A stretch of DNA of 11,572 bases from Promethearchaeota archaeon (lineage in GTDB: Archaea > Asgardarchaeota > Lokiarchaeia > Sigyniarchaeales > SOKP01). The position numbers and the translations under genes are program-made. The stretch spans positions 1 to 11,572 of the forward strand of contig JAHLWH010000139.1 in NCBI GenBank assembly GCA_019058015.1. Reading direction: 5' to 3'. Of the stretch, positions 1,595 to 11,071 are shown piece by piece. Each line of letters opens with the position of its first letter. Position 1 is the first letter of the stretch. The notes under the pieces were generated by a model. That model searched no databases, had not been told where the DNA came from, and saw nothing but the letters and a program-made list of their open reading frames with translations.

Positions 1595-3283
1595 TTATTT
1601 TTGAACTGCCTTAATTAATCTCTCTATCTCGGCCTGTACTTCTTGTGGTGTTTTATCCAATACTCCCTTAGCTAATTGCTCCTCAATATGTGGACGATGT
1701 ATGGTGTTGTGCGCGCAAAATGGAATTTCTAAAACCTTTGATGGATCTGATGGATCTATCACACCATAGTGAACTAAACAGCGCGATACTCGCTCCAAAT
1801 CAAAATTATAGGCATCTTGAAAATGCATCGCGGAAATCATTAAATTCTTCGATTGCAAAAAGGCTCCTGCAGCCTGCAATCCCGGTTTGAAAATAAGACC
1901 TGTAAACCTTTGCAAAGTTTTTGAAGTAAATATTTTTTCTGGATTTTTAACATATCTAACAAGACCTGCGAAAAAATAAGCTCTCATTAAATTTCTATAA
2001 GCTGCATCAGCCATTCCATCAATAAAATCACCAATGACATTTCCTATTTTACCTAAACTTTTGATGTCAAAACTTCCAAACATATTCGTAGGTTTTGGCA
2101 TTTCTTTACTCTCTACCATATCCCAAACTTTATTTGCCCACCTGATTAACCCCTCAACATCAAAATACTTTTCAATAGGTTCCCATTCACCATGTTCGTT
2201 AAGAGGTACGATAGTAGCAAACCCACAGTCTTGGTGAGAAAGCATAGAGAATTGTGGCATGTCATCAAACCAGGCAAGTAATCTAGTGAATTTTCCTGTT
2301 GTTGCGATTGGGTAAAAATACGTAATAGCTCCACCTGTACATTCGTTAAGTGCAACTTTCAAATCACTTGTAGTGTATCTCATATCCATTAATTCTTCAT
2401 AGCTAATCCTTCCGCATAGAGATACTGGTTGAAAGATAACACCGGCAATTATATCAGTATTCTCCTTAGCATAATTCATGATATTTCCAATTTCATGGTC
2501 ATTCATTCCTTTACATACCGTTGGAACAAGCATTACACCTGCTAAACCAACTTCTCTGCAATTTTCAATTACTTTTTGTTTTAAAGGCCACAAATTTACG
2601 CCTCTTATTTTCTTATAAGTTTCGGGTGTGCAACCATCAAATTGTAAATAGACTGCATCACAATTGGCTTGTTTTAATTTTCTACAATATTCTACAGACT
2701 TTCCTAACTTTACTCCATTGGTAGTGAGCATTACTTCGGTAAATCCAAGTTCGTGCCCTTTTCTTATTATATCAAATATGTCATCTCTCAATGTTGGCTC
2801 CCCACCAGATAATTGAAGCATAACTGGTGGTACCGGTTTCATCGATCTAAAGTGTTCCATAATTTGAACTATTTGATCATATGTGGGTTCTACAACATAT
2901 CCTGCAGCATTTGCATTAGCAAAACAAACAGGACAAACCAAATTACATCTATTTGTTACATCGATTAACCCAATACAAGGAGCCGATTTATGGTTCTCGC
3001 AGATGCCACAATCATAAGGGCAACCGTTCCTTCCTTCTTTAATACCTGAACAAACAGAATCTGGTTTTGTAGTTGTTAAAGTTGAGCCAACATCATTACA
3101 GAAATTTTGACCCCAAACATAATCTTCCTTATTAATTGATAACTTATCCTTGAATGCACCATGAGTTTTACATTCTTTTCGCATCATAACCCATTGTGTC
3201 TTATCATCAACATATATCTCGGCTGGAATTTGTTGAAGACATTCCGGACAGATACTTGTAGTATTTCTAATTACTTCAGTCAT
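1595..3283 (-). CDS. tes: Tetraether lipid synthase (Tes / GDGT-macrocyclic archaeol synthase, MJ0619 family) radical SAM enzyme
   Basis: N-terminal CPEC...CKTH rubredoxin-like site; CPYDCGICENH auxiliary-cluster motif; radical SAM motif VTNRCNLVCPVCFA; SGGEPT; YLQFDG; C-terminal HQDCG, MHFQDAYNFDLERVSRCLVHY and IPFCAHN. GAGGT RBS upstream. Confidence 0.88.
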   Translation of the reverse strand: MTEVIRNTTSICPECLQQIPAEIYVDDKTQWVMMRKECKTHGAFKDKLSINKEDYVWGQNFCNDVGSTLTTTKPDSVCSGIKEGRNGCPYDCGICENHKSAPCIGLIDVTNRCNLVCPVCFANANAAGYVVEPTYDQIVQIMEHFRSMKPVPPVMLQLSGGEPTLRDDIFDIIRKGHELGFTEVMLTTNGVKLGKSVEYCRKLKQANCDAVYLQFDGCTPETYKKIRGVNLWPLKQKVIENCREVGLAGVMLVPTVCKGMNDHEIGNIMNYAKENTDIIAGVIFQPVSLCGRISYEELMDMRYTTSDLKVALNECTGGAITYFYPIATTGKFTRLLAWFDDMPQFSMLSHQDCGFATIVPLNEHGEWEPIEKYFDVEGLIRWANKVWDMVESKEMPKPTNMFGSFDIKSLGKIGNVIGDFIDGMADAAYRNLMRAYFFAGLVRYVKNPEKIFTSKTLQRFTGLIFKPGLQAAGAFLQSKNLMISAMHFQDAYNFDLERVSRCLVHYGVIDPSDPSKVLEIPFCAHNTIHRPHIEEQLAKGVLDKTPQEVQAEIERLIKAVQK

Positions 3284-3859
3284 TATTTTAACCTCTCATA
3301 CTGGGGGAATAATTGTATGATATAAGAGTTATTTATTTAAATAAACATTTTATTAATTTAAAGATTATAAGATAACTAATAATTGGATTGATATTTTTTA
3401 TTAAAATTAAGTTAATTTTTTAATAAATTGATTGAAAATACCCAATAACTGATTATTTTTTGATCAGACGTTAATTGACTTTTTTTTACATTGAAAGATT
3501 TCTTTTTTATTAACATTATTCAATTTGTTCTAAATGAGTAATATTAGAACTTATTAATTTGATTTTAGAATAAGCTCTTTATATTCAAAATCTCAATATT
3601 AAATATATAAATAATAAATATTCCAAAATATTTGAGATTATTCCCTTTAGAATTTCATTTTTTCATTTAAATTGGGATATAAAGATTCTTTTAAAACTTT
3701 GTATTCTAATAGAGTACACTTCTATTCGATTTTTTTTAAAAAAATAAAATAGAGGTCAGTTTAAAATATAAAAAAGTCCAATTAGAATTAAAAAATAAAA
3801 ATTTAAAAAGAGAACTCCTACTTAATTAATTTTATATATCATAAAGTTTTGTAAAGCTT

Positions 3860-4055
3860 TACGTAGCGTAAATCTCTACGTAGCGAGGCTATTTTTTGAA
3901 AGGTGGATCCCTGCCACAAATAAATAGGGGGAGGAGGAGGGCGAAAATAAGTGTAGACTATATTCTACACCAACCAAAAGACAAAAATCCAGAGTGGCAG
4001 GGATCTTATTTTTGGTTTTTATTCCTATTTAATTTTTGCCTTTAATATTCCTCCA
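3860..4055 (+). ncRNA. Candidate structured non-coding RNA or cis-element of unknown family
   Basis: GC-richer island in an otherwise very AT-rich spacer. Perfect 12-bp inverted repeat at 3906-3917/3994-4005, internal hairpin at 3951-3970, TTTATATA at 3831-3838 upstream and T-tracts at 4009-4020 downstream. Strand is uncertain. Confidence 0.45.
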
Positions 4056-4368
4056 ATCAATTTCTACAGAATTATCGTTCAAATTTTTATACTTAAATTT
4101 ATGTTAATCTCTTAATTAAACTTTTTAAAGATTCAAGTTTTATGTCTTATTTAATATATATATGTAATTCTATTTAAATAATCTTTTCTGTTTAATTGTG
4201 ATCCTCATGAGAAAATATTTTTTCTTTTAAATATAATTTCGAAAAAAATGTCGAATTTTGATAATTTTGATTATATTTTTTATTGATTTTATATTTTTAA
4301 GGAATTTTTTAAATAATTTATAATTTTATATCATATAAGTTCTATTAATTAGTCTAATTAGAGATAAT

Positions 4369-4773: not shown

Positions 4774-6162
4774 CTATTCTTGTTTTTTTAGTAAGAATGT
4801 GGGATTCTTGCATCCTACATCGATATCTCTTAAGAGGGTTTTTACATTTGGTTCTAATATATTTCTCATTAAAATTGATATAAAATTAGATTTTGGATTA
4901 AGAGTTTTTTGATATTTCACAATTGATTTATTCCAATAATTATGGTAGCAAAGTTTTCCCAAACTGCTTCTCGGCGGTGGCTTGGGATAATTTTTACTAT
5001 AACCTAATACTATAAGAGAACATAAATGCCAATCATTAGGGCATTTTATTATTTCTTTTGTTTTTTTTCTTGAAAAGCTTCCAACCCAACAAGTACCTAT
5101 TCTCAATGAATAGGCTCTTAATAATATCAGTTGAATAATGGCTCCTACGTCAATTTTTGCATAAAAAGCAGTAGAATTTTTAGCTTCAAATGCAAATAAA
5201 ATAATTAGAGGTACTTGCTGGACATGAGATTGTTTTACAAATACAATTTTAGCTAAATTTGCAATTTTTGAGAGCACTTTGGGATTATCTATTACAATAA
5301 TTTTAATAAAAGGCTTATTTATAGTTGGGGGTATATATAATCCTGACTTTACAATTTTAAGCATATTTGATAAAGAAATTTTATAGTTATCTCCTTCATG
5401 ATAATTCCTTATCGAGCGCCGATCAAGAATTGCATCAATTGTATATATATTATATTCTTCTTCCTTAATTTTTTCTAATAAATCTTGTTGATTTTTTAAC
5501 GGATTTTCCCATAGATTATGAGATAGAAAATATTCAAGATTTAATTGTTTTTCAGGGATATTTTCCTCAAGCTCAATTGAAAAGCCCAATGCAAGAATCG
5601 AATCAATTGATATATGTTTTGGGATTTTAAATTTCTCTCTAACATAATCTCGATTAAAAATTCTTATCCATCTAGTAGATAATCCCCTTTCATTTGCAAC
5701 TAATATCATATTAATTATAGCAGCGCCTATTTCAGTTTCTCCAAAAACTTTTCCGGTCAACCTATTAGAATGGCAGCAAATTATAAATATAGGCGCAGAT
5801 TGAGCACTTATAACATCAATTTTATGCATCTTTTGCATTTCAGATTGATACAGGTCTTGCTCAACATTGAAATAGGATTCATCAAATCTAAAACTTGCCT
5901 TATTTACATCATCTTCCTTAATTTTTTTAATAACTGATAATCTTTTAATTAACCGAGGATCTCCATCTTTTATGGCTTCTTTGATGAGTTTTATTTTATC
6001 AGCATTATTTATAGTGATAAATTTCCAAACTTGTTGATTTTGAGCGGAAGGAGCCCAACGTGCCGCTTCAAGGATTTCTAAAATAGTTTCTCTCTTAATT
6101 TTTTTATTAGAATCAAATTTTTGGGCATTTTTGAGTGATCTTAAATTGTCTATTAATTTCAT
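4774..6162 (-). CDS. Nitroreductase-family (FMN-dependent) protein with two tandem domains
   Basis: Domain 1: ILEAARWAPSAQNQQVWKF...GLSTRWI...LALGF. Domain 2: AILDRRSIRNY...DVGAIIQLILLRAYSLRIGTCWVGSF...LIVLGYSKNYPKPPPRSSL. Confidence 0.92.
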   Translation of the reverse strand: MKLIDNLRSLKNAQKFDSNKKIKRETILEILEAARWAPSAQNQQVWKFITINNADKIKLIKEAIKDGDPRLIKRLSVIKKIKEDDVNKASFRFDESYFNVEQDLYQSEMQKMHKIDVISAQSAPIFIICCHSNRLTGKVFGETEIGAAIINMILVANERGLSTRWIRIFNRDYVREKFKIPKHISIDSILALGFSIELEENIPEKQLNLEYFLSHNLWENPLKNQQDLLEKIKEEEYNIYTIDAILDRRSIRNYHEGDNYKISLSNMLKIVKSGLYIPPTINKPFIKIIVIDNPKVLSKIANLAKIVFVKQSHVQQVPLIILFAFEAKNSTAFYAKIDVGAIIQLILLRAYSLRIGTCWVGSFSRKKTKEIIKCPNDWHLCSLIVLGYSKNYPKPPPRSSLGKLCYHNYWNKSIVKYQKTLNPKSNFISILMRNILEPNVKTLLRDIDVGCKNPTFLLKKQE

Positions 6163-6189: not shown

Positions 6190-6399
6190 TTATAAAAAAA
6201 ATGGAAGTTTGCATTTAATACATGATTTACCTTCAAGACTGGCTTTTTTTGCACACTCTAAGCAATATAGTTGGCTGCATTTTTTGCATTCATAGATTTC
6301 TCCCTTAATTTGCCCCTTATGAAATAAGCAAAAATCTTTTTTGATTTCAATCGGAGGAGGCATTTCTGGAGGAGGAGGGATTTGCTTTTCATTACTCAT
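6190..6399 (-). CDS. Small Pro-rich RING/PHD-like zinc-finger protein
   Basis: Eight potential ligands: C24-x2-H27-x10-C38-x2-C41-x4-C46-x2-C49-x10-C60-x2-C63. N-terminal IPPPPEMPPP. GAGGT RBS upstream of the ATG. Confidence 0.85.
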   Translation of the reverse strand: MSNEKQIPPPPEMPPPIEIKKDFCLFHKGQIKGEIYECKKCSQLYCLECAKKASLEGKSCIKCKLPFFL

Positions 6400-7043: not shown

Positions 7044-7589
7044 TTGGAGATACTATCAAATTTAAAACCATTTTTATACACTGGAGTAATTTTATTGTAT
7101 TCTGATAATAGGATTTCAAAAAACAGATATTCAATTATTGATAACATATCTGACAGATTTCACGCTATATTCCTAATTGATGCTAAAACTGGCTTAACAT
7201 TTTTAAGTAAAAAGTTCTCAAAAAACTTTAATAAATTTAATTCAGATAATGAAGATTTAATTTCAGGATTCTTAAATGCTCTTAATTATTTTGTGAAAGA
7301 ACTTGATTTTGAAAATGAATCAATAGAAGAAGTGAATTTTAAGAATAATAGAATTTTATATGAACAAAAAGGGCGTTTAATGGCAATAGGTATTTCAAAA
7401 AAAACAAATATTGAAATTGAACGAAAATTTCTTTCTATGATTATTAATGATTTTTATCTTTCTTTTAAAGTTAATATTGAAAACTTTTGTGGAGACGTGA
7501 GAATATTTGAAAAATTTAAATCCAAATTAGATTTATATAAGATACCCAGTATTATTCAACCAACACATTCAAAAATAATACCTGGGTAA
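7044..7589 (+). CDS. Longin/roadblock-like domain protein (Asgard-type); true start may lie further downstream
   Basis: FHAIFLIDAKTGLTFLSKKF...EDLISGFLNALNYFVKEL...IEEVNFKNNRILYEQKGRLMAIGIS...FLSMIINDF...FCGDVRIFEKF fits longin-fold topology and the Asgard 'DLISGFLxAL..F' signature as I recognise it. Confidence 0.8.
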   Translation: MEILSNLKPFLYTGVILLYSDNRISKNRYSIIDNISDRFHAIFLIDAKTGLTFLSKKFSKNFNKFNSDNEDLISGFLNALNYFVKELDFENESIEEVNFKNNRILYEQKGRLMAIGISKKTNIEIERKFLSMIINDFYLSFKVNIENFCGDVRIFEKFKSKLDLYKIPSIIQPTHSKIIPG

Positions 7590-7602: not shown

Positions 7603-8784
7603 TTATTCATTATTTTTTTCTGTTTCTTTAGTTTTTATCTCATAAAATTTTTTTTCGACTGTTTTTTCGATTTGTTTGCCCTTTCCTTCTATATCTGCAT
7701 CAATAGATTTACGTAGTTCATCTCTCTCCTTTTGTCTATCTCTATAAAATGCCTTCTCAGCAATGGTTTTTTCAATTACTCCCTTTTTACTTTCAATATC
7801 TGCTTTTATTTCAAATCTTTCCTTATCTTTTTCCTTTAATTTCTCCATTTTATATGCTTTATCGGCTATAGTCTTCTCTAATTCACTTTGTTTTCCTTCT
7901 ATATCAAGTTTTATATCTCTACGTTGTTGGTCTCGCTCCCTTTGTCGTTCAATCATAAACTTCTTTTCATCAACACTCTTTTCAATTTCTTTTTGCGACC
8001 CTTCGATATCTGGACTTATATCTTTACGTTGTTGTTCTTGCTCTCTTTGTCGTTCAATCATAAATGCTTTCTCCGCAATTGCTTTCTCAATTTGTTTTCC
8101 GGTGCTTTCGATTTTTGGCTTCATTGAAGCGATTTGTTTATCCCTTTCCTTCAGTTTTTCAATTTTGAAAACTTTCTCTTCCAAACTCTTCTCAATATTT
8201 TTACCTACACCTCCAATATCTGTTTGCATGGCTTTACGTTGTTCTTCTTGTTCCCTTTGTCGTTCAATCATGAATGCCTTTTCGGCTACTTTTCCCTCAA
8301 TCTCCTTTTTTGTCCTTTCTATATCAGGACTTATTGCTTTGCGTTGTTCATCTCGTTCTTTTTGTCGTTCAATCATAAACGCCTTTTCGGCTACCTTTTT
8401 TTCAATTTCTAATCCTGTCCCAATAATTCTCGGTTTTACTGATGTTCTTATGTTATCCTTTTCACGACGTATATCCATACGAAATGCTTTATCTGCGATA
8501 TTACTGGCAATTGCTTTCTCAATTACATTTAAATCCGGCTTAATACTGGCTCTCATTTCAGCTTCTGATTTCATTCTCTCAGAAATAAAAATTTTATCAG
8601 CAACAGTTTTAGCAATCTCTTTTTTACTCCGCTCAAATGATTCCTTTCTTTTTTCTTCAGTTTTGTCTAAATATTCCTTAATCTCGTTCTTTTCTTTTTG
8701 AATGAGTTTCTTTAACATCTCCTTTTCTTTTTCGATTTCTTCTGGTGTTTTTTTATGAATATTTTCATCTTCCAAATTTTTCAC
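7603..8784 (-). CDS. Charged helical protein made of about 9.5 tandem 35-aa repeats
   Basis: GTG start with AAGGA upstream. Repeat consensus KxIEKxIAEKAFxxERQ(R/K)ERDxQRKxIxPDIEGxx. No TM segment and no Cys. Confidence 0.9.
   Translation of the reverse strand: MKNLEDENIHKKTPEEIEKEKEMLKKLIQKEKNEIKEYLDKTEEKRKESFERSKKEIAKTVADKIFISERMKSEAEMRASIKPDLNVIEKAIASNIADKAFRMDIRREKDNIRTSVKPRIIGTGLEIEKKVAEKAFMIERQKERDEQRKAISPDIERTKKEIEGKVAEKAFMIERQREQEEQRKAMQTDIGGVGKNIEKSLEEKVFKIEKLKERDKQIASMKPKIESTGKQIEKAIAEKAFMIERQREQEQQRKDISPDIEGSQKEIEKSVDEKKFMIERQRERDQQRRDIKLDIEGKQSELEKTIADKAYKMEKLKEKDKERFEIKADIESKKGVIEKTIAEKAFYRDRQKERDELRKSIDADIEGKGKQIEKTVEKKFYEIKTKETEKNNE
7630..8620 (-). repeat. Degenerate 105-bp coding tandem repeat with a 315-bp higher-order unit
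   Basis: The 16-mer TTTGTCGTTCAATCAT (plus strand) recurs at 7941, 8046, 8256 and 8361, with spacings of 105, 210 and 105. Confidence 0.9.
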
Positions 8785-8884
8785 GTTCCTTATTCGAAAT
8801 TAATAATAAATGGATAATTAGGAATTAAATTATTTCTGTATTTAAAATGAAAATAATTCTTAATAAAATTAGGTAAATTTAATA

Positions 8885-9625
8885 TTATTTTATGGGAATC
8901 GGTGCAATATCATCAGCTACAGAATCCATCAAACTCAATAATGTAAATTTAAGCATAAGCATTTCATTTACCTCATTCATTAATCTTATATATTGGTCAG
9001 TTCCCTTTTTGATTTTATATTCCATAATTAAATTTTCAAATTCTCGAATTAATTGGAATCGTAACTCTTCTTGTTGATTTAAATTTAATCTTTGTCTAGA
9101 AATCCACTTATCAATTCTACTTTTTATTTCAATCTCTTTATTATCTCCTAAAACATAAGATACTTCTACCTGCTCTAAATTCTCAATCTTCTTAACATAA
9201 CTTAAATCGGCATATATAGGTTTTACCATCAATCCCAAATTAATAATTAATGGTTGCAATTGCAAACCTTCAAAACTCCCGGTTAAATAATCTAAAACAA
9301 AATCCTTTCGAGAAAATTGTTGATACTCAATAAATTCCTGAAGGAGCTTAAAAAGTGTTGTCTTTAATAATAGCTCATCATATTCATTAATGTTTTCTGT
9401 AGTGATTTCCAATGTTTGATGAATACAATTATAAACTGTTTTCATAAAAGGTTTAATGGTTTTAAACATGTCAAAGAGATCAATGAATTTTAAGATTTTG
9501 TCGAGGATTGTAATTTTATCCTGAGCTGAAAAAAAATATCGGTTAATAATATCTTCCAGATCAAAAAATTCATTCGGAATCGAAAGAAAACTCTGTATTT
9601 CCTCAAACTTTGAATAGATTCTCAA
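8885..9625 (-). CDS. Hypothetical helical protein
   Basis: 246-aa ORF with TTG start (uncertain) and typical composition. No motif recognised. Confidence 0.78.
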   Translation of the reverse strand: MRIYSKFEEIQSFLSIPNEFFDLEDIINRYFFSAQDKITILDKILKFIDLFDMFKTIKPFMKTVYNCIHQTLEITTENINEYDELLLKTTLFKLLQEFIEYQQFSRKDFVLDYLTGSFEGLQLQPLIINLGLMVKPIYADLSYVKKIENLEQVEVSYVLGDNKEIEIKSRIDKWISRQRLNLNQQEELRFQLIREFENLIMEYKIKKGTDQYIRLMNEVNEMLMLKFTLLSLMDSVADDIAPIPIK

Positions 9626-9728: not shown

Positions 9729-11071
9729 TTAAAATATACTTGGAATCAGAGCCTTTGAACCATATAATATCCCCGCTATTGCATAATATAATAATTTCCA
9801 TATTGAAAAGCCTGGGGAAATACATCAAGAGCCTTTACATTCATCAATTTAAATAAAGCGTTAATGGTTTCAGCTAAATTATTGCAATTATGCGAAAAGA
9901 ACACATTTTTTTTACCGAATTCTTCCCTCAGTTTTTCTCCAACCTCGTCTATAGCACAAAACCCAGCTACAAGACCTTTGGTATATCCCTCGTTTTTTAG
10001 TTGTTCTACTAAGTCATCATCAAAACCTTTTCCCATCACTATGAAAAAACCTCCTTTTCCTTGATTAACAAGCCAAAAACATTGCATTGTCGCTAATGGA
10101 TTATTTTTGCAACCCTGTTGACAAAGTAATTCTTTACCTTTGATTATTTTTACATCTTCTGGAAATTCCTGGAGTAAATCTGTGGGATATTTTTCTTTAT
10201 ATTCATCTAAAGATTTTCCAATCACTTTAATTTTACTTAAATCACCCTCTCCAAGCCCTCGTTCATTTGCGATTTTCAAATGTGGAACATCATCCAAAGT
10301 TAAACCAAAAATTCTTGCACCGACCACATCAACTGAAACTGTATCTCTTCCACCAATTAAAATATTGAATTTTTTAACAAGTTTGTCCACTAATGCAGTC
10401 GGAGGATAGTGTCCATGAATTGTGCTCTCAATTCCATCTATTATTGTAATATCCGGCTGAATGTATTCATAAACATCCACAATTTTTGAATGGAGATTGA
10501 AATTATGGTCAATTCCTCTCATTTTATGTTCTGGGAAACCCCATTGGTTTTTCAAACCTAAGGTTACCCCTGCCATACTATGTGTCTTTAATTTAGGTAT
10601 ATTAATATACGTATATTCGTCTCTATTTTTCATTATTTTTATTATAGTTTTAGGCAAACTAAAGGTTTTTAACATATATCCTTCTTTAGGATCTTATTCT
10701 ATTGAAGGTTTTCCTTTAAAGGTGAAAATTTCTGTTTTTTCCTCATCTAAATATATTGGTTTCGCTCCAGTTTTTTTACATACTTTCTTATATCCCGTTA
10801 TTGCAAATACGATTCTGGTCATATTTCCTTGCGTGGAATTCTCCATGACATAAATCTTTTTTACACCAATCTTTTTTAGATACTCTATTACTTCCTCTAA
10901 AACTTCTGGACTTGTATGGCGGTGTTTTTTAAAATCAATGCCATTAACCTTAATATAAACCTCTTTCGAACTTTTCAGAATTGGTTTTCCTCCCTTTTCA
11001 AGAAAAGAAAACATTTCCTTAACTGTAGGCTTTATCCCATGGGTAGTATCAACAATAAAAACATCAGAAAT
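9729..11071 (-). pseudogene. DUF362-family (Fe-S associated) protein, disrupted by an in-frame TAA and a probable C-terminal frameshift
   Basis: ORFs 10694-11014 and 9776-10675 are in the same frame, joined as GAA-TAA-GAT-CCT-AAA-GAA-GGA-TAT-ATG. DUF362 motifs occur on both sides: VYIKVN...HTSPEVLEEVIEYL...VMENS and INIPKLKTHSMAGVTLGLKNQWG...PDITIIDGI...GRDTVSVDVVGARIFG. The frame extends upstream to ATT at 11071, behind GAAGTGAT. Confidence 0.8.

Follow-up and report, generated by a model that had tools for sequence, protein, structure and literature searches.

The analysed window is a stretch of 11,572 nucleotides from a Promethearchaeota archaeon, and it contains a gene for a tandem-repeat protein on its reverse strand (positions 7603–8784, (−) strand). 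The open reading frame list and the translation give 393 codons, running from a GTG start (8784–8782) to a TAA stop (7603–7605). The N-terminal region (residues 1–51; 8632–8784, (−) strand) is non-repetitive and corresponds to a predicted K/E-rich helix, according to an alignment of 13 orthologues (A1) and AlphaFold2. It is followed by nine complete units of 35 amino acids or 105 nt (residues 52–366; 7687–8631, (−) strand), which were delimited by offset analysis, a unit list, an identity matrix and the predicted helix. Units 1 through 9 lie on the (−) strand at 8527–8631, 8422–8526, 8317–8421, 8212–8316, 8107–8211, 8002–8106, 7897–8001, 7792–7896 and 7687–7791, respectively. A terminal half-unit with a charged tail (residues 367–393; 7606–7686, (−) strand), recognized by comparing orthologue tails, completes the protein. 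Upstream is an AT-rich spacer of 100 nt (8785–8884, (−) strand), assigned by reading the sequence only. The spacer includes a TATA-like element, TTTATTATTAA (8800–8810, (−) strand), and the tetranucleotide AGGA (8787–8790, (−) strand) immediately ahead of the GTG codon; TTTATTATTAA may act as a promoter element and AGGA as a ribosome-binding site.

The gene is real and under purifying selection, with a dN/dS of about 0.2 (0.19–0.25 in 6/6 orthologue pairs), and orthologues at 85–91% identity are equal in length to the repeat protein. It is single-copy in its genome. An antisense ORF of 312 amino acids (7763–8701, (+) strand) is not regarded as a gene, since one congener retains just 157 codons of it and, across 61 orthologues, the median length of the longest antisense frame is 0.33 of that of the sense frame. 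The protein has a mass of about 47 kDa and would extend up to about 59 nm if helical throughout. Neither its sequence nor the 61 orthologue tails showed a signal peptide, a transmembrane segment or an added domain.

The first-pass annotation had described about 9.5 indel-free repeats of 35 amino acids, and the offset analysis bears this out: nine full units without any indel are followed by a partial tenth, and the self-identity of the protein is 38.5%, 38.7% and 39.9% at offsets of 35, 70 and 105, versus an average of 14.4% and a maximum of 17.8% for the best offset in 200 shuffles of the protein. At the DNA level, TRF detects the 105-nt period at 7911–8100 and 8231–8420, with 80% matches. 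The repeat unit quoted in that annotation and its lone ADKAYK copy are both present, and the A-[DE]-K-A-[FY]-like motif that it assigned to each repeat is found, in the form [AED]-[DE]-K-x-[FY], in 9/9 full units and in a shifted position in the partial one. Its statement that many repeats carry PDIE was overstated, as only two of the nine units here carry the exact sequence and five have Pro at that place. Units 1 and 2 are the most degenerate, and units 3, 4, 6 and 7 the most canonical.

The period is kept across the family. Over 77 loci, 573 of 641 motif-to-motif spacings are exactly 35 residues, seven are 70 and eight are 32. The 32-residue units occur at six loci and represent a rare length variant of −3 residues; a distant homologue in another family has 37-residue units. 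Copy number ranges from 4 to 12 in 52 proteins, with clusters at 10 (20/52) and 12 (14/52). The N-terminal 51 residues have conserved residues of their own in alignment A1 (PEEIEK, YL, EE-RK and F50). The readable C-termini of 61 complete orthologues consist of a similar degenerate half-unit and then a short charged tail, with no anchor or extra domain common to the 61 tails. A Trp-containing helix was discarded as a shared C-terminal anchor, being found in only 1/61.

Each unit is built from a core, a spacer and a junction. The 17-residue core, I6-x-K8-x-[IV]10-x-E12-K13-A14-F15-x-I17-E18-K19-x-R21-E22, is the most conserved part: in 408 units I6 and K13 are conserved at 99%, F15 at 96% (the aromatic position being Phe in 392/408), A14 at 88%, and E12 and E22 at 87% each. 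The spacer of about 12 residues is rich in E/R/K/Q, has no hydrophobic core residue and tolerates a three-residue deletion. The junction reads I30-K-P32-D33-I34-E, followed by a variable Gly/Ser/Thr/Ala linker, with family-wide conservation of 72–80% for P32 and 75–90% for D33, the 408 units giving 80% and 90%, respectively. The information content is 3–4.2 bits in the cores versus 1–3 bits in the charged spacer segments. On a helical wheel the strongly conserved residues fall at 0, 40, 60, 80, 160, 180, 220, 240, 300 and 340 degrees, and the conserved core residues thus occupy every face of the helix, not one side: an Ile/Ala stripe runs along one side, and Lys and Glu surround the near-invariant Phe on the opposite one. 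There is no positional orthology of units between genera, yet the consensus is kept; therefore, selection acts equally on every unit and maintains each of them while the arrays turn over.

Charged residues make up 50% of the protein and hydrophobic ones 24%, the net charge per unit is 0.0, and opposite-charge pairs at i/i+3 and i/i+4 are enriched (128 observed vs 98 ± 8 in shuffles, z 3.7). AlphaFold2, run on four units (3–6) with a gapless alignment of 102 sequences, predicts a single helix over residues 2–135 of 140 (pLDDT 77.8), with pLDDT peaking in the cores and reaching its minimum at the junctions. The run with 13 full-length orthologues yields long helices with breaks at some junctions and nowhere else (pTM 0.20), the most confident part being the N-terminal helix of residues 14–80 (pLDDT about 76–92). 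No fold-back, helical bundle, hairpin or solenoid was found in the AlphaFold2 models (pTM 0.20–0.25); a self-contained bundle or solenoid, named by the first-pass annotation as evidence against its proposal, does not appear. If the helix were ideal and continuous, each core would be turned by 260 degrees relative to the one before; only breaks at the junctions or supercoiling of the rod would then let the cores face a straight partner from a single side.

These properties would suit a passive spacer or tether, in which a single α-helix fixes the distance between things bound at the N-terminal domain and the C-terminal tail, and the repeats are a by-product of growth by duplication. The charge content, the enriched pairs and the predicted single helix are in line with such a role, as are the separately conserved and most confidently modelled N-terminal 51 residues and a copy number of 4 to 12. 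A spacer, however, does not need an invariant Ile, Lys and Phe in each unit, nor cores that are conserved far better than the charged segments. The hydrophobic content is well over that of classic ER/K helices, and the C-terminal tail is short and lacks conservation between genera. We regard a purely passive role as quite improbable.

A second possibility is a self-assembling fibrous protein, whose Ile stripes would pair or bundle as a segmented coiled coil of five heptads per unit while the exposed Phe faces cause the rods to pack side by side in a staggered fibre or lattice, in analogy to intermediate-filament-like or striated-fibre proteins. At 3.5 residues per turn, 35 residues complete ten turns exactly, and the Ile stripes would thus be in phase only in a left-handed supercoil. 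A shift of −3 residues is the classic coiled-coil stutter, which the rare length variant matches. AlphaFold2 monomer runs on coiled-coil proteins often return one long helix, and the models obtained here resemble these; weak PDB profile matches, in turn, include designed antiparallel coiled-coil barrels (E 0.02–0.03). Against self-assembly, the best of seven heptad registers has only 48% hydrophobic occupancy of a/d, with 4/10 positions above 50% hydrophobic, and the hydrophobic power at period 3.5 (24.7) is no higher than at 3.89 (24.0). Residues 18–29 of every unit contain no core residue, Pro is 80% conserved at position 32, and the near-invariant charged K13 (99%), E12 and E22 would be unusual where polarity alone would do. 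The protein is a poor canonical coiled coil, and the five-heptad coiled coil that had been put forward as the simpler alternative is poorly supported. A two-copy co-fold of residues 1–191 with alignment A1 scored 0.00 in both runs and counts neither way. Self-assembly is, on balance, unlikely; even if the protein does nothing else, it is a clean natural helical repeat of exact period, with >570 indel-free spacings.

Database searches place the protein outside named families. Pfam gives 0 families for it at E ≤ 1 and at E ≤ 10, and neither NCBIfam nor the PDB gives a significant match. For the 13 orthologues, 38 Pfam families matched at E ≤ 10; Nebulin, tropomyosin and WH2, the families with which the first-pass annotation had proposed a comparison, are absent among the 25 listed, and each of the remaining 13 matched at most one of the 13 orthologues. 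A word-indexed homologue search yielded 0 of 7,999 scored candidates at E ≤ 0.001, and the homologue set used here comes from an exhaustive search and genome scans that replaced it. A protein atlas gave a best score of 0.76 and no usable match for either the repeat protein or the 246-aa protein encoded upstream. In a sequence-cluster look-up, two representatives of the repeat family are singletons without names. The Asgard papers searched by term yielded no family like this 35-aa-repeat protein, with the supplementary tables of PMC12962969, PMC13734099 and PMC13364712 as places that could mention one, and no paper was found that joins 'nebulin-like' with 'archaea'.

The best PDB profile match, which is non-significant, is ApoA-IV (3s84; E 0.015 for the whole chain, i-Evalue 1.3 for the best stretch). 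This match, the Pro-punctuated tandem helices and the very hydrophilic composition are what would be expected if amphipathic helices bound lipid or membrane surfaces in the manner of apolipoproteins or perilipin, or if the protein were an LEA-like, stress-protective hydrophilin. The hydrophobic stripe is only one residue wide and covers half of each unit, however, and the invariant Phe lies on the opposite, polar face. An 11-residue period (3.67 per turn) keeps amphipathic surface helices in phase; 35 is not a multiple of it, and the hydrophobic power is equal at 3.5 and 3.89. A hydrophilin would not be expected to conserve its charged residues so strictly. Both variants are very unlikely.

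The phyletic range is narrow: the gene is present in 113/161 genomes of its class, nearly all in one family. The protein was not found in two whole genera of that family (0/7 and 0/2 genomes) or in 13/14 genomes of the neighbouring family. The host had been called a probable Asgard archaeon, which is corroborated by an actin that matches Pfam Actin at 444 bits, by gelsolin domains and by orthologous loci in Promethearchaeota/Promethearchaeia. The genome carries two other actin-family proteins. Lokiactin-type actin was found in 41/41 relatives searched, including whole genera without the repeat protein, and every homologue found belongs to an actin-bearing lineage; homologues mainly in lineages lacking actin, which had been named as evidence against an actin role, were thus not found.

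The genomic context is uninformative as to function. The orthologues are flanked by a 181-aa gene (67/67 loci), a 151-aa gene (62/63) and a 246-aa gene (58/66). In eight genomes without the repeat gene, the 246-aa and 181-aa genes are adjacent and convergent, 44–214 nt apart, and a functional tie to this pair was rejected since it persists there; the 181-aa protein has 3–13 paralogues per genome. The homologue with a 37-residue period has unrelated neighbours (a hydrolase, HTH regulators, an MBL-fold protein and Dus). No actin-related neighbours occur in either context.

Taken together, a semi-rigid, charge-stabilized rod serving as a multivalent periodic docking scaffold or ruler is the explanation that we prefer, as a plausible but tentative one; this estimate includes the more specific actin case considered below. 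The protein would be a cytoplasmic, all-α rod, with an N-terminal helix of about 51 residues and then nine exact 35-residue modules (mostly 10 or 12 in the family). Intrahelical salt bridges would stabilize the semi-rigid helix and an identical candidate docking site would be displayed every ~5.2 nm along it. Subunits of a polymer, or many copies of one small protein, might grip each core or hold it between them, much as nebulin works on actin, centrin with Sfi1, and light chains with IQ-motif lever arms. The binding role of the cores, the monomeric state of the rod and all that concerns its partner are inferences. Against the scaffold, the period is not universal, given the 32- and 37-residue units, and the 260-degree turn from core to core would carry the sites away from a straight partner. 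The ten turns at 3.5 residues per turn are also what supercoiled self-assembly would favour. A conserved, lineage-restricted rod that repeats one site at ~5.2-nm intervals over ~50 nm would be well suited to measuring, bundling or decorating a periodic structure, and knowing its partner might uncover a component of Asgard cell architecture without a eukaryotic homologue.

The actin case is a narrower form of the scaffold: a side-binding ruler or stabilizer of an Asgard cytomotive filament (Lokiactin or another actin-family protein), evolved independently of nebulin and tropomyosin and convergent with the former, with one 35-aa module per subunit along the long-pitch strand. The Lokiactin-type actin in the host and all 41 relatives searched and the module length, which equals that of nebulin, favour such a binder, and a helix lodged between two subunits would be in keeping with cores that are conserved on opposite faces. 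Nebulin is strongly basic, and the units of the repeat protein have no net charge. The lack of homology to nebulin, tropomyosin or WH2, the absence of SDxxYK and of the Lifeact/ITPKA-type motif from all 408 units and the Phe lying opposite the hydrophobic stripe instead of on it also count against actin, as do the genera and neighbouring-family genomes in which the protein was not found and actin is kept where checked, and the absence of actin-related neighbours. The first-pass annotation had noted that 35 helical residues, at about 5.3 nm, come close to the actin spacing of roughly 5.5 nm, an argument that loses force on closer calculation: with the Lokiactin filament parameters of PMC9834061, the path per same-strand subunit is 56.2–58.4 Å versus 52.5 Å per fully helical unit, and register would therefore be lost unless each junction unwinds. 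Pro and Gly are found at the junctions, where the AlphaFold2 confidence dips or the helix breaks, so that 2–3 residues per unit could unwind and cover a shortfall of 3.7–5.9 Å; the junctions would absorb the mismatch of ~4–6 Å at one module per filament subunit, and the typical 10–12 units would cover about 56–67 nm of filament. According to PMC13716822, published Asgard actin regulators are mainly profilins and gelsolins, and a side-binder role would therefore be without a known occupant. If true, it would be the first protein known to read filament length or a filament lattice in archaea. We consider the actin case distinctly unlikely, and a link to actin is unsupported by the present analyses; the interpretation of the first-pass annotation is partly supported, in that its actin-bearing Asgard host and strictly periodic helical array are borne out.

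Compared with known systems, the repeat protein appears from its sequence to belong to no known protein family; its own family is unnamed and matches no Pfam, NCBIfam or PDB entry. Nebulin (PF00880), the vertebrate thin-filament ruler, is likewise built from many helical tandem modules of 35 residues, with an acidic residue ahead of a conserved aromatic one and a copy number that differs between species. The motif of the nebulin module is SDxxYK, and no sequence relationship to the [ED]-K-A-F of the repeat protein is detectable. SDxxYK is absent from the repeat protein and from all 408 family units, a relaxed [ST][DE]..[YF]K occurs in 1/408, and Lys follows the unit aromatic in only 9/408. The acidic residue stands three, not four, residues before the aromatic. 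Nebulin also forms a helix plus loop, in contrast to the continuous helix predicted here, and a specific nebulin likeness beyond the module length is not supported.

Tropomyosin and other two-stranded coiled coils share the elongated, all-helical rod and a period divisible by seven; the repeat protein differs in its conserved junction Pro, its low a/d hydrophobicity and the absence of a Pfam or PDB match. Tropomyosin spans about 39–40 residues per actin, in agreement with the 37.4–38.9 helical residues computed per Lokiactin subunit and not with 35. The short linear F-actin-binding motif (SFM) of the Lifeact/ITPKA type is given in PMC13364712 as V-x-x-L-x-x-x-F-E, with V/L/I and F/Y equivalents. 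It resembles the units in being a short helix with a Phe, essential in SFM, flanked by charged residues. As defined there, its strict, relaxed and no-Glu versions match 0/408 units: the motif needs hydrophobic residues at F-7 and F-4, whereas the units have Lys at F-7 (279/408) and Gly (194/408) or otherwise Glu, Ser, Asp or Ala at F-4, and Glu does not come after the Phe.

The α-solenoid proteins (TPR, PPR, HEAT and Sel1) consist of stacked hairpins, in contrast to the one helix predicted across four units, and no such Pfam match was found. Exchangeable apolipoproteins such as ApoA-IV share Pro-punctuated tandem helical repeats, with a period of 22/11 residues and a broad hydrophobic face as opposed to 35 residues and a one-residue stripe. 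ER/K single α-helix (SAH) domains, exemplified by myosin VI/X and caldesmon, have in common with the repeat protein ~50% charge, enriched i/i+4 pairs and a predicted long isolated helix. They lack a periodic invariant hydrophobic or aromatic core, whereas I6, K13 and F15 recur here at 96–99% every 35 residues. Sfi1 centrin-binding repeats and IQ-motif lever arms, with units of about 23–33 residues versus 35, are likewise long helices with evenly spaced short motifs. By description, the repeat protein may be likened to them in that its motifs are conserved around the helix, as if a single copy of a small partner enclosed each of them.

The repeat gene is a 393-codon open reading frame on the minus strand (7603-8784) with a GTG start. 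When its product, P0001, is laid out in rows of 35, nine 35-aa units without an indel occupy residues 52-366, preceded by a separate K/E-rich segment (residues 1-51) and followed by a truncated tenth unit (residues 367-393), all encoded on the minus strand. The self-identity of P0001 is 38.5% at an offset of 35, 38.7% at 70 and 39.9% at 105, against shuffled controls (n = 200) in which the best offset averages 14.4% and reaches a maximum of 17.8%; TRF detects a 105-nt period at the DNA level in two stretches. The indel-free 35-aa repeats described in the first-pass annotation are thus confirmed, and its example unit and the sole ADKAYK copy are both present. The one overstatement concerns PDIE, said to occur in many units: the exact motif is found in two of nine, with Pro at that position in five of nine.

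The gene is single-copy in the host genome (3.84 Mb, 283 contigs, 94% complete), and dN/dS is 0.19-0.25 in all six pairs formed by four congeneric orthologues of identical length. A 312-aa Phe/Ser/Leu-rich ORF on the opposite strand (7763-8701, +) was considered as a gene and rejected, as it is not conserved and is reduced to 157 codons in one congener. In 61 orthologues, the median length of the longest antisense frame is 0.33 of that of the sense frame, and the mirrored ORF is an artefact of the AAA/GAA-rich Lys/Glu codon bias.

The period is strongly maintained, with 573 of 641 motif-to-motif spacings from 77 loci being exactly 35. Seven spacings of 70 correspond to one degenerate motif skipped, those of 26 or less (n = 45) to sequences that resemble the motif within the N-terminal domain or the tail, and the remainder to isolated irregularities, among them a run of X and an ORF picked in error. 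Eight spacings are 32, and in these units the 3-residue deletion sits in the charged spacer; a homologue from another family has 37-residue units, in which the junction is two residues longer and lacks Pro. Among 408 units, conservation is highest at I6 (99%), K13 (99%), F15 (96%), D33 (90%), A14 (88%), E12 (87%), E22 (87%) and P32 (80%); position 21 is nearly always basic (R/K), and variation is seen at positions 1-5, 23, 25 and 28-29. The unit count of complete proteins ranges from 4 to 12, with 10 (20/52) and 12 (14/52) the commonest. Between genera no positional orthology of units is found, and the median unit identity within one protein is 0.54, indicating that the arrays turn over with every unit kept to the consensus. 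A passive spacer or tether is an improbable role for an array with this conservation pattern; no common C-terminal anchor was found in the readable tails of 61 complete orthologues, all of which consist of a degenerate half-unit and a short charged tail.

An AlphaFold2 model built with 13 full-length orthologues is all helix (mean pLDDT 67, pTM 0.20), with the highest confidence in the N-terminal helix and with breaks at 81-84, 116-123, 219-226 and 255-261, which are unit junctions. A second model, for which 102 four-unit windows were aligned without gaps, is a single helix over residues 2-135 (pLDDT 77.8), the confidence peaking at the cores and dipping at the junctions. Neither model contains a hairpin, bundle or solenoid; a self-contained bundle or solenoid would have spoken against a filament side-binder in the first-pass proposal. 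Plotted as a helical wheel, the unit shows a stripe one residue wide made up of I6, I10, A14 and I17, and F15 lies on the opposite face, encircled by K8, E12, K19 and E22; residues 18-29 have no hydrophobic core residue. A 5-heptad coiled coil, previously offered as the simpler alternative, fits these units poorly, as the best heptad register has 48% hydrophobic a/d positions and the hydrophobic power is equal at periods of 3.5 and 3.89. A segmented coiled coil or fibre formed by self-assembly is accordingly unlikely, although designed antiparallel coiled-coil barrels are among the PDB matches of the four-unit profile (E 0.02-0.03, not significant). P0001 is 50% charged and 24% hydrophobic, with a pI of 9.1; the family net charge per unit is 0.0, and pairs of opposite charge spaced i/i+3 and i/i+4 are in excess (z 3.7). 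Lipid-surface or hydrophilin roles, in favour of which stand this composition and a non-significant match of the profile to apolipoprotein A-IV (E 0.015, or 1.3 for the best stretch), are very improbable. A plausible, if tentative, reading is that the repeat protein acts as a multivalent periodic docking rod, the case of a Lokiactin side-binder included. Such a rod would be about 50-59 nm long, for the most part one helix stabilised by its charges, and would offer a copy of the same 17-residue site at intervals of ~5.2 nm, with a partner touching each copy on more than one face. The architecture, period, conservation pattern, predicted helix and distribution are observed features, and the role of the cores as binding sites, the oligomeric state and the partner belong to the interpretation.

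An exhaustive HMMER search of 1.84 billion representative proteins gave 25 matches at E<=0.001, five of them at E<=1e-10, and all ten among the matches listed contain the 35-residue unit of P0001. Three metagenomic representatives (P0011, P0019 and P0024) have one to three units joined to unrelated sequence, the foreign parts being a TPR-like tail, a Gly/Ala-rich tail and an unrelated N-terminus; either chimeric assembly or real fusion may account for them. Of 161 genomes of the class, 113 contain the family according to the four-unit profile: 109/134 in the window's own family (the window's genome excluded), where two genera have none (0/7 and 0/2), 1/14 in a neighbouring family, 2/4 in a third and 0/8 in four others. 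In the species-level genome collection, the records with orthologous loci bear the titles Promethearchaeota, Promethearchaeia or 'uncultured archaeon', and a few have other Asgard labels. One locus, L080, belongs to a record titled Nanopelagicaceae bacterium (an actinobacterial MAG) and encodes a full-length orthologue (501-aa ORF, 12 motif copies); it is likely a mis-binned Asgard contig, the gene being otherwise Asgard-only. The host encodes an actin (444 bits to Pfam Actin), two other genes of the actin family and six matches to gelsolin domains, of which four exceed the cut-off; together with the orthologue records, this bears out the earlier assignment to a probable Asgard archaeon. The Pfam Profilin search gave no match in the host genome and was uninformative, its control being equally silent. 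Actin was found in 41/41 relatives searched, including the genera and families counted above; thus every homologue resides in an actin-bearing lineage, and none of the actin-lacking hosts that would have counted against the first-pass idea was found, yet many actin-bearing lineages have no repeat protein.

Neighbours were counted over orthologous loci with enough flank. A 181-aa gene (7044-7589, +) is convergent and downstream in 67/67 loci, with a 151-aa gene beyond it in 62/63; upstream on the same strand lie a 246-aa gene (8885-9625, -; 58/66) and, further, a DUF362 gene (9776-11014, -; 50/62). A functional link of the repeat gene with these neighbours was rejected, because eight genomes without the repeat gene keep the 246-aa and 181-aa genes as adjacent convergent neighbours with 44-214 nt between them. 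Conservation of the pair extends over at least two families of the order, whether or not the repeat gene, a lineage-restricted occupant of the gap, lies between the two; the 37-residue-period homologue is located elsewhere, among unrelated genes. The 181-aa protein has only a weak, sub-threshold longin-like Pfam match (E 0.11), and its family has 3-13 copies per genome, some within proteins of >1,000 aa; the 246-aa protein matches no Pfam or NCBIfam family. The DUF362 frame is open throughout except for an in-frame TAA (10694-10696) that separates a 106-aa ORF (profile positions 1-78) from a 299-aa ORF (positions 96-200), and in a relative, L008, a single ORF spans the junction without a break; a nonsense mutation, an error in sequencing and a gene that is genuinely split are all possible explanations. 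Elsewhere in the window, a 562-aa radical-SAM protein (1595-3283, -; Pfam PF23545, PF04055) has a zinc ribbon of the HMPTM type at its N-terminus, an architecture known from the archaeal group of pterin methylases and tetraether-lipid synthases; in 50/77 loci it is encoded no more than 4 kb from the repeat gene. A 462-aa protein with two nitroreductase-type domains (4774-6162, -) has homologues in only 3/77 orthologous loci, and a 69-aa Cys-rich zinc-ribbon-like protein (6190-6399, -) is conserved in 43/77. The ~1.1 kb at 3284-4368 has no ORF of 60 aa or more, a G+C of 0.18-0.28 and a 17-nt direct repeat (3851-3885). No tRNA or Rfam family was found in the whole window.

The repeat family is new and unnamed, and its general kind, a tandem alpha-helical rod, is familiar. 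No source looked up gives it a name, and no archaeal nebulin-like protein or comparable family was found in searches of the literature and of the text of Asgard papers. In the family databases P0001 has no Pfam match at E<=10 and no NCBIfam match, and no PDB chain scores better than E 0.1. The nebulin likeness noted earlier receives no backing from profiles: Nebulin, tropomyosin and WH2 are not among the 25 listed of 38 weak Pfam families for 13 orthologues (E<=10), and the four-unit profile finds no nebulin or tropomyosin chain at E<=10 among all PDB sequences. The nebulin motif SDxxYK occurs in 0/408 units.

The proposed match to the actin subunit spacing is also weakened for a continuous helix. 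PMC9834061 gives the Lokiactin filament a rise of 27.9 Å and a twist of -167.7 degrees, from which a one-strand path of 56.2-58.4 Å per subunit at radii of 15-40 Å follows, equivalent to 37.4-38.9 helical residues. A helix of 35 residues covers 52.5 Å and, if continuous, would fall out of register by 3.7-5.9 Å per unit on these parameters, so that a ruler needs 2 or 3 residues unwound at each Pro/Gly junction. Such unwinding to restore the register is possible; as one case of the docking rod, and within the probability given to it, Lokiactin side-binding is nonetheless improbable. Only the demonstration of a filament partner would make the rod highly interesting. The short F-actin-binding helix motif of PMC13364712, VxxLxxxFE, is absent from all 408 units (0/408), relaxed forms included. 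This motif needs hydrophobic residues where the repeat units carry Lys and Gly, and the Phe of the repeat unit lies opposite the hydrophobic stripe, not on it.
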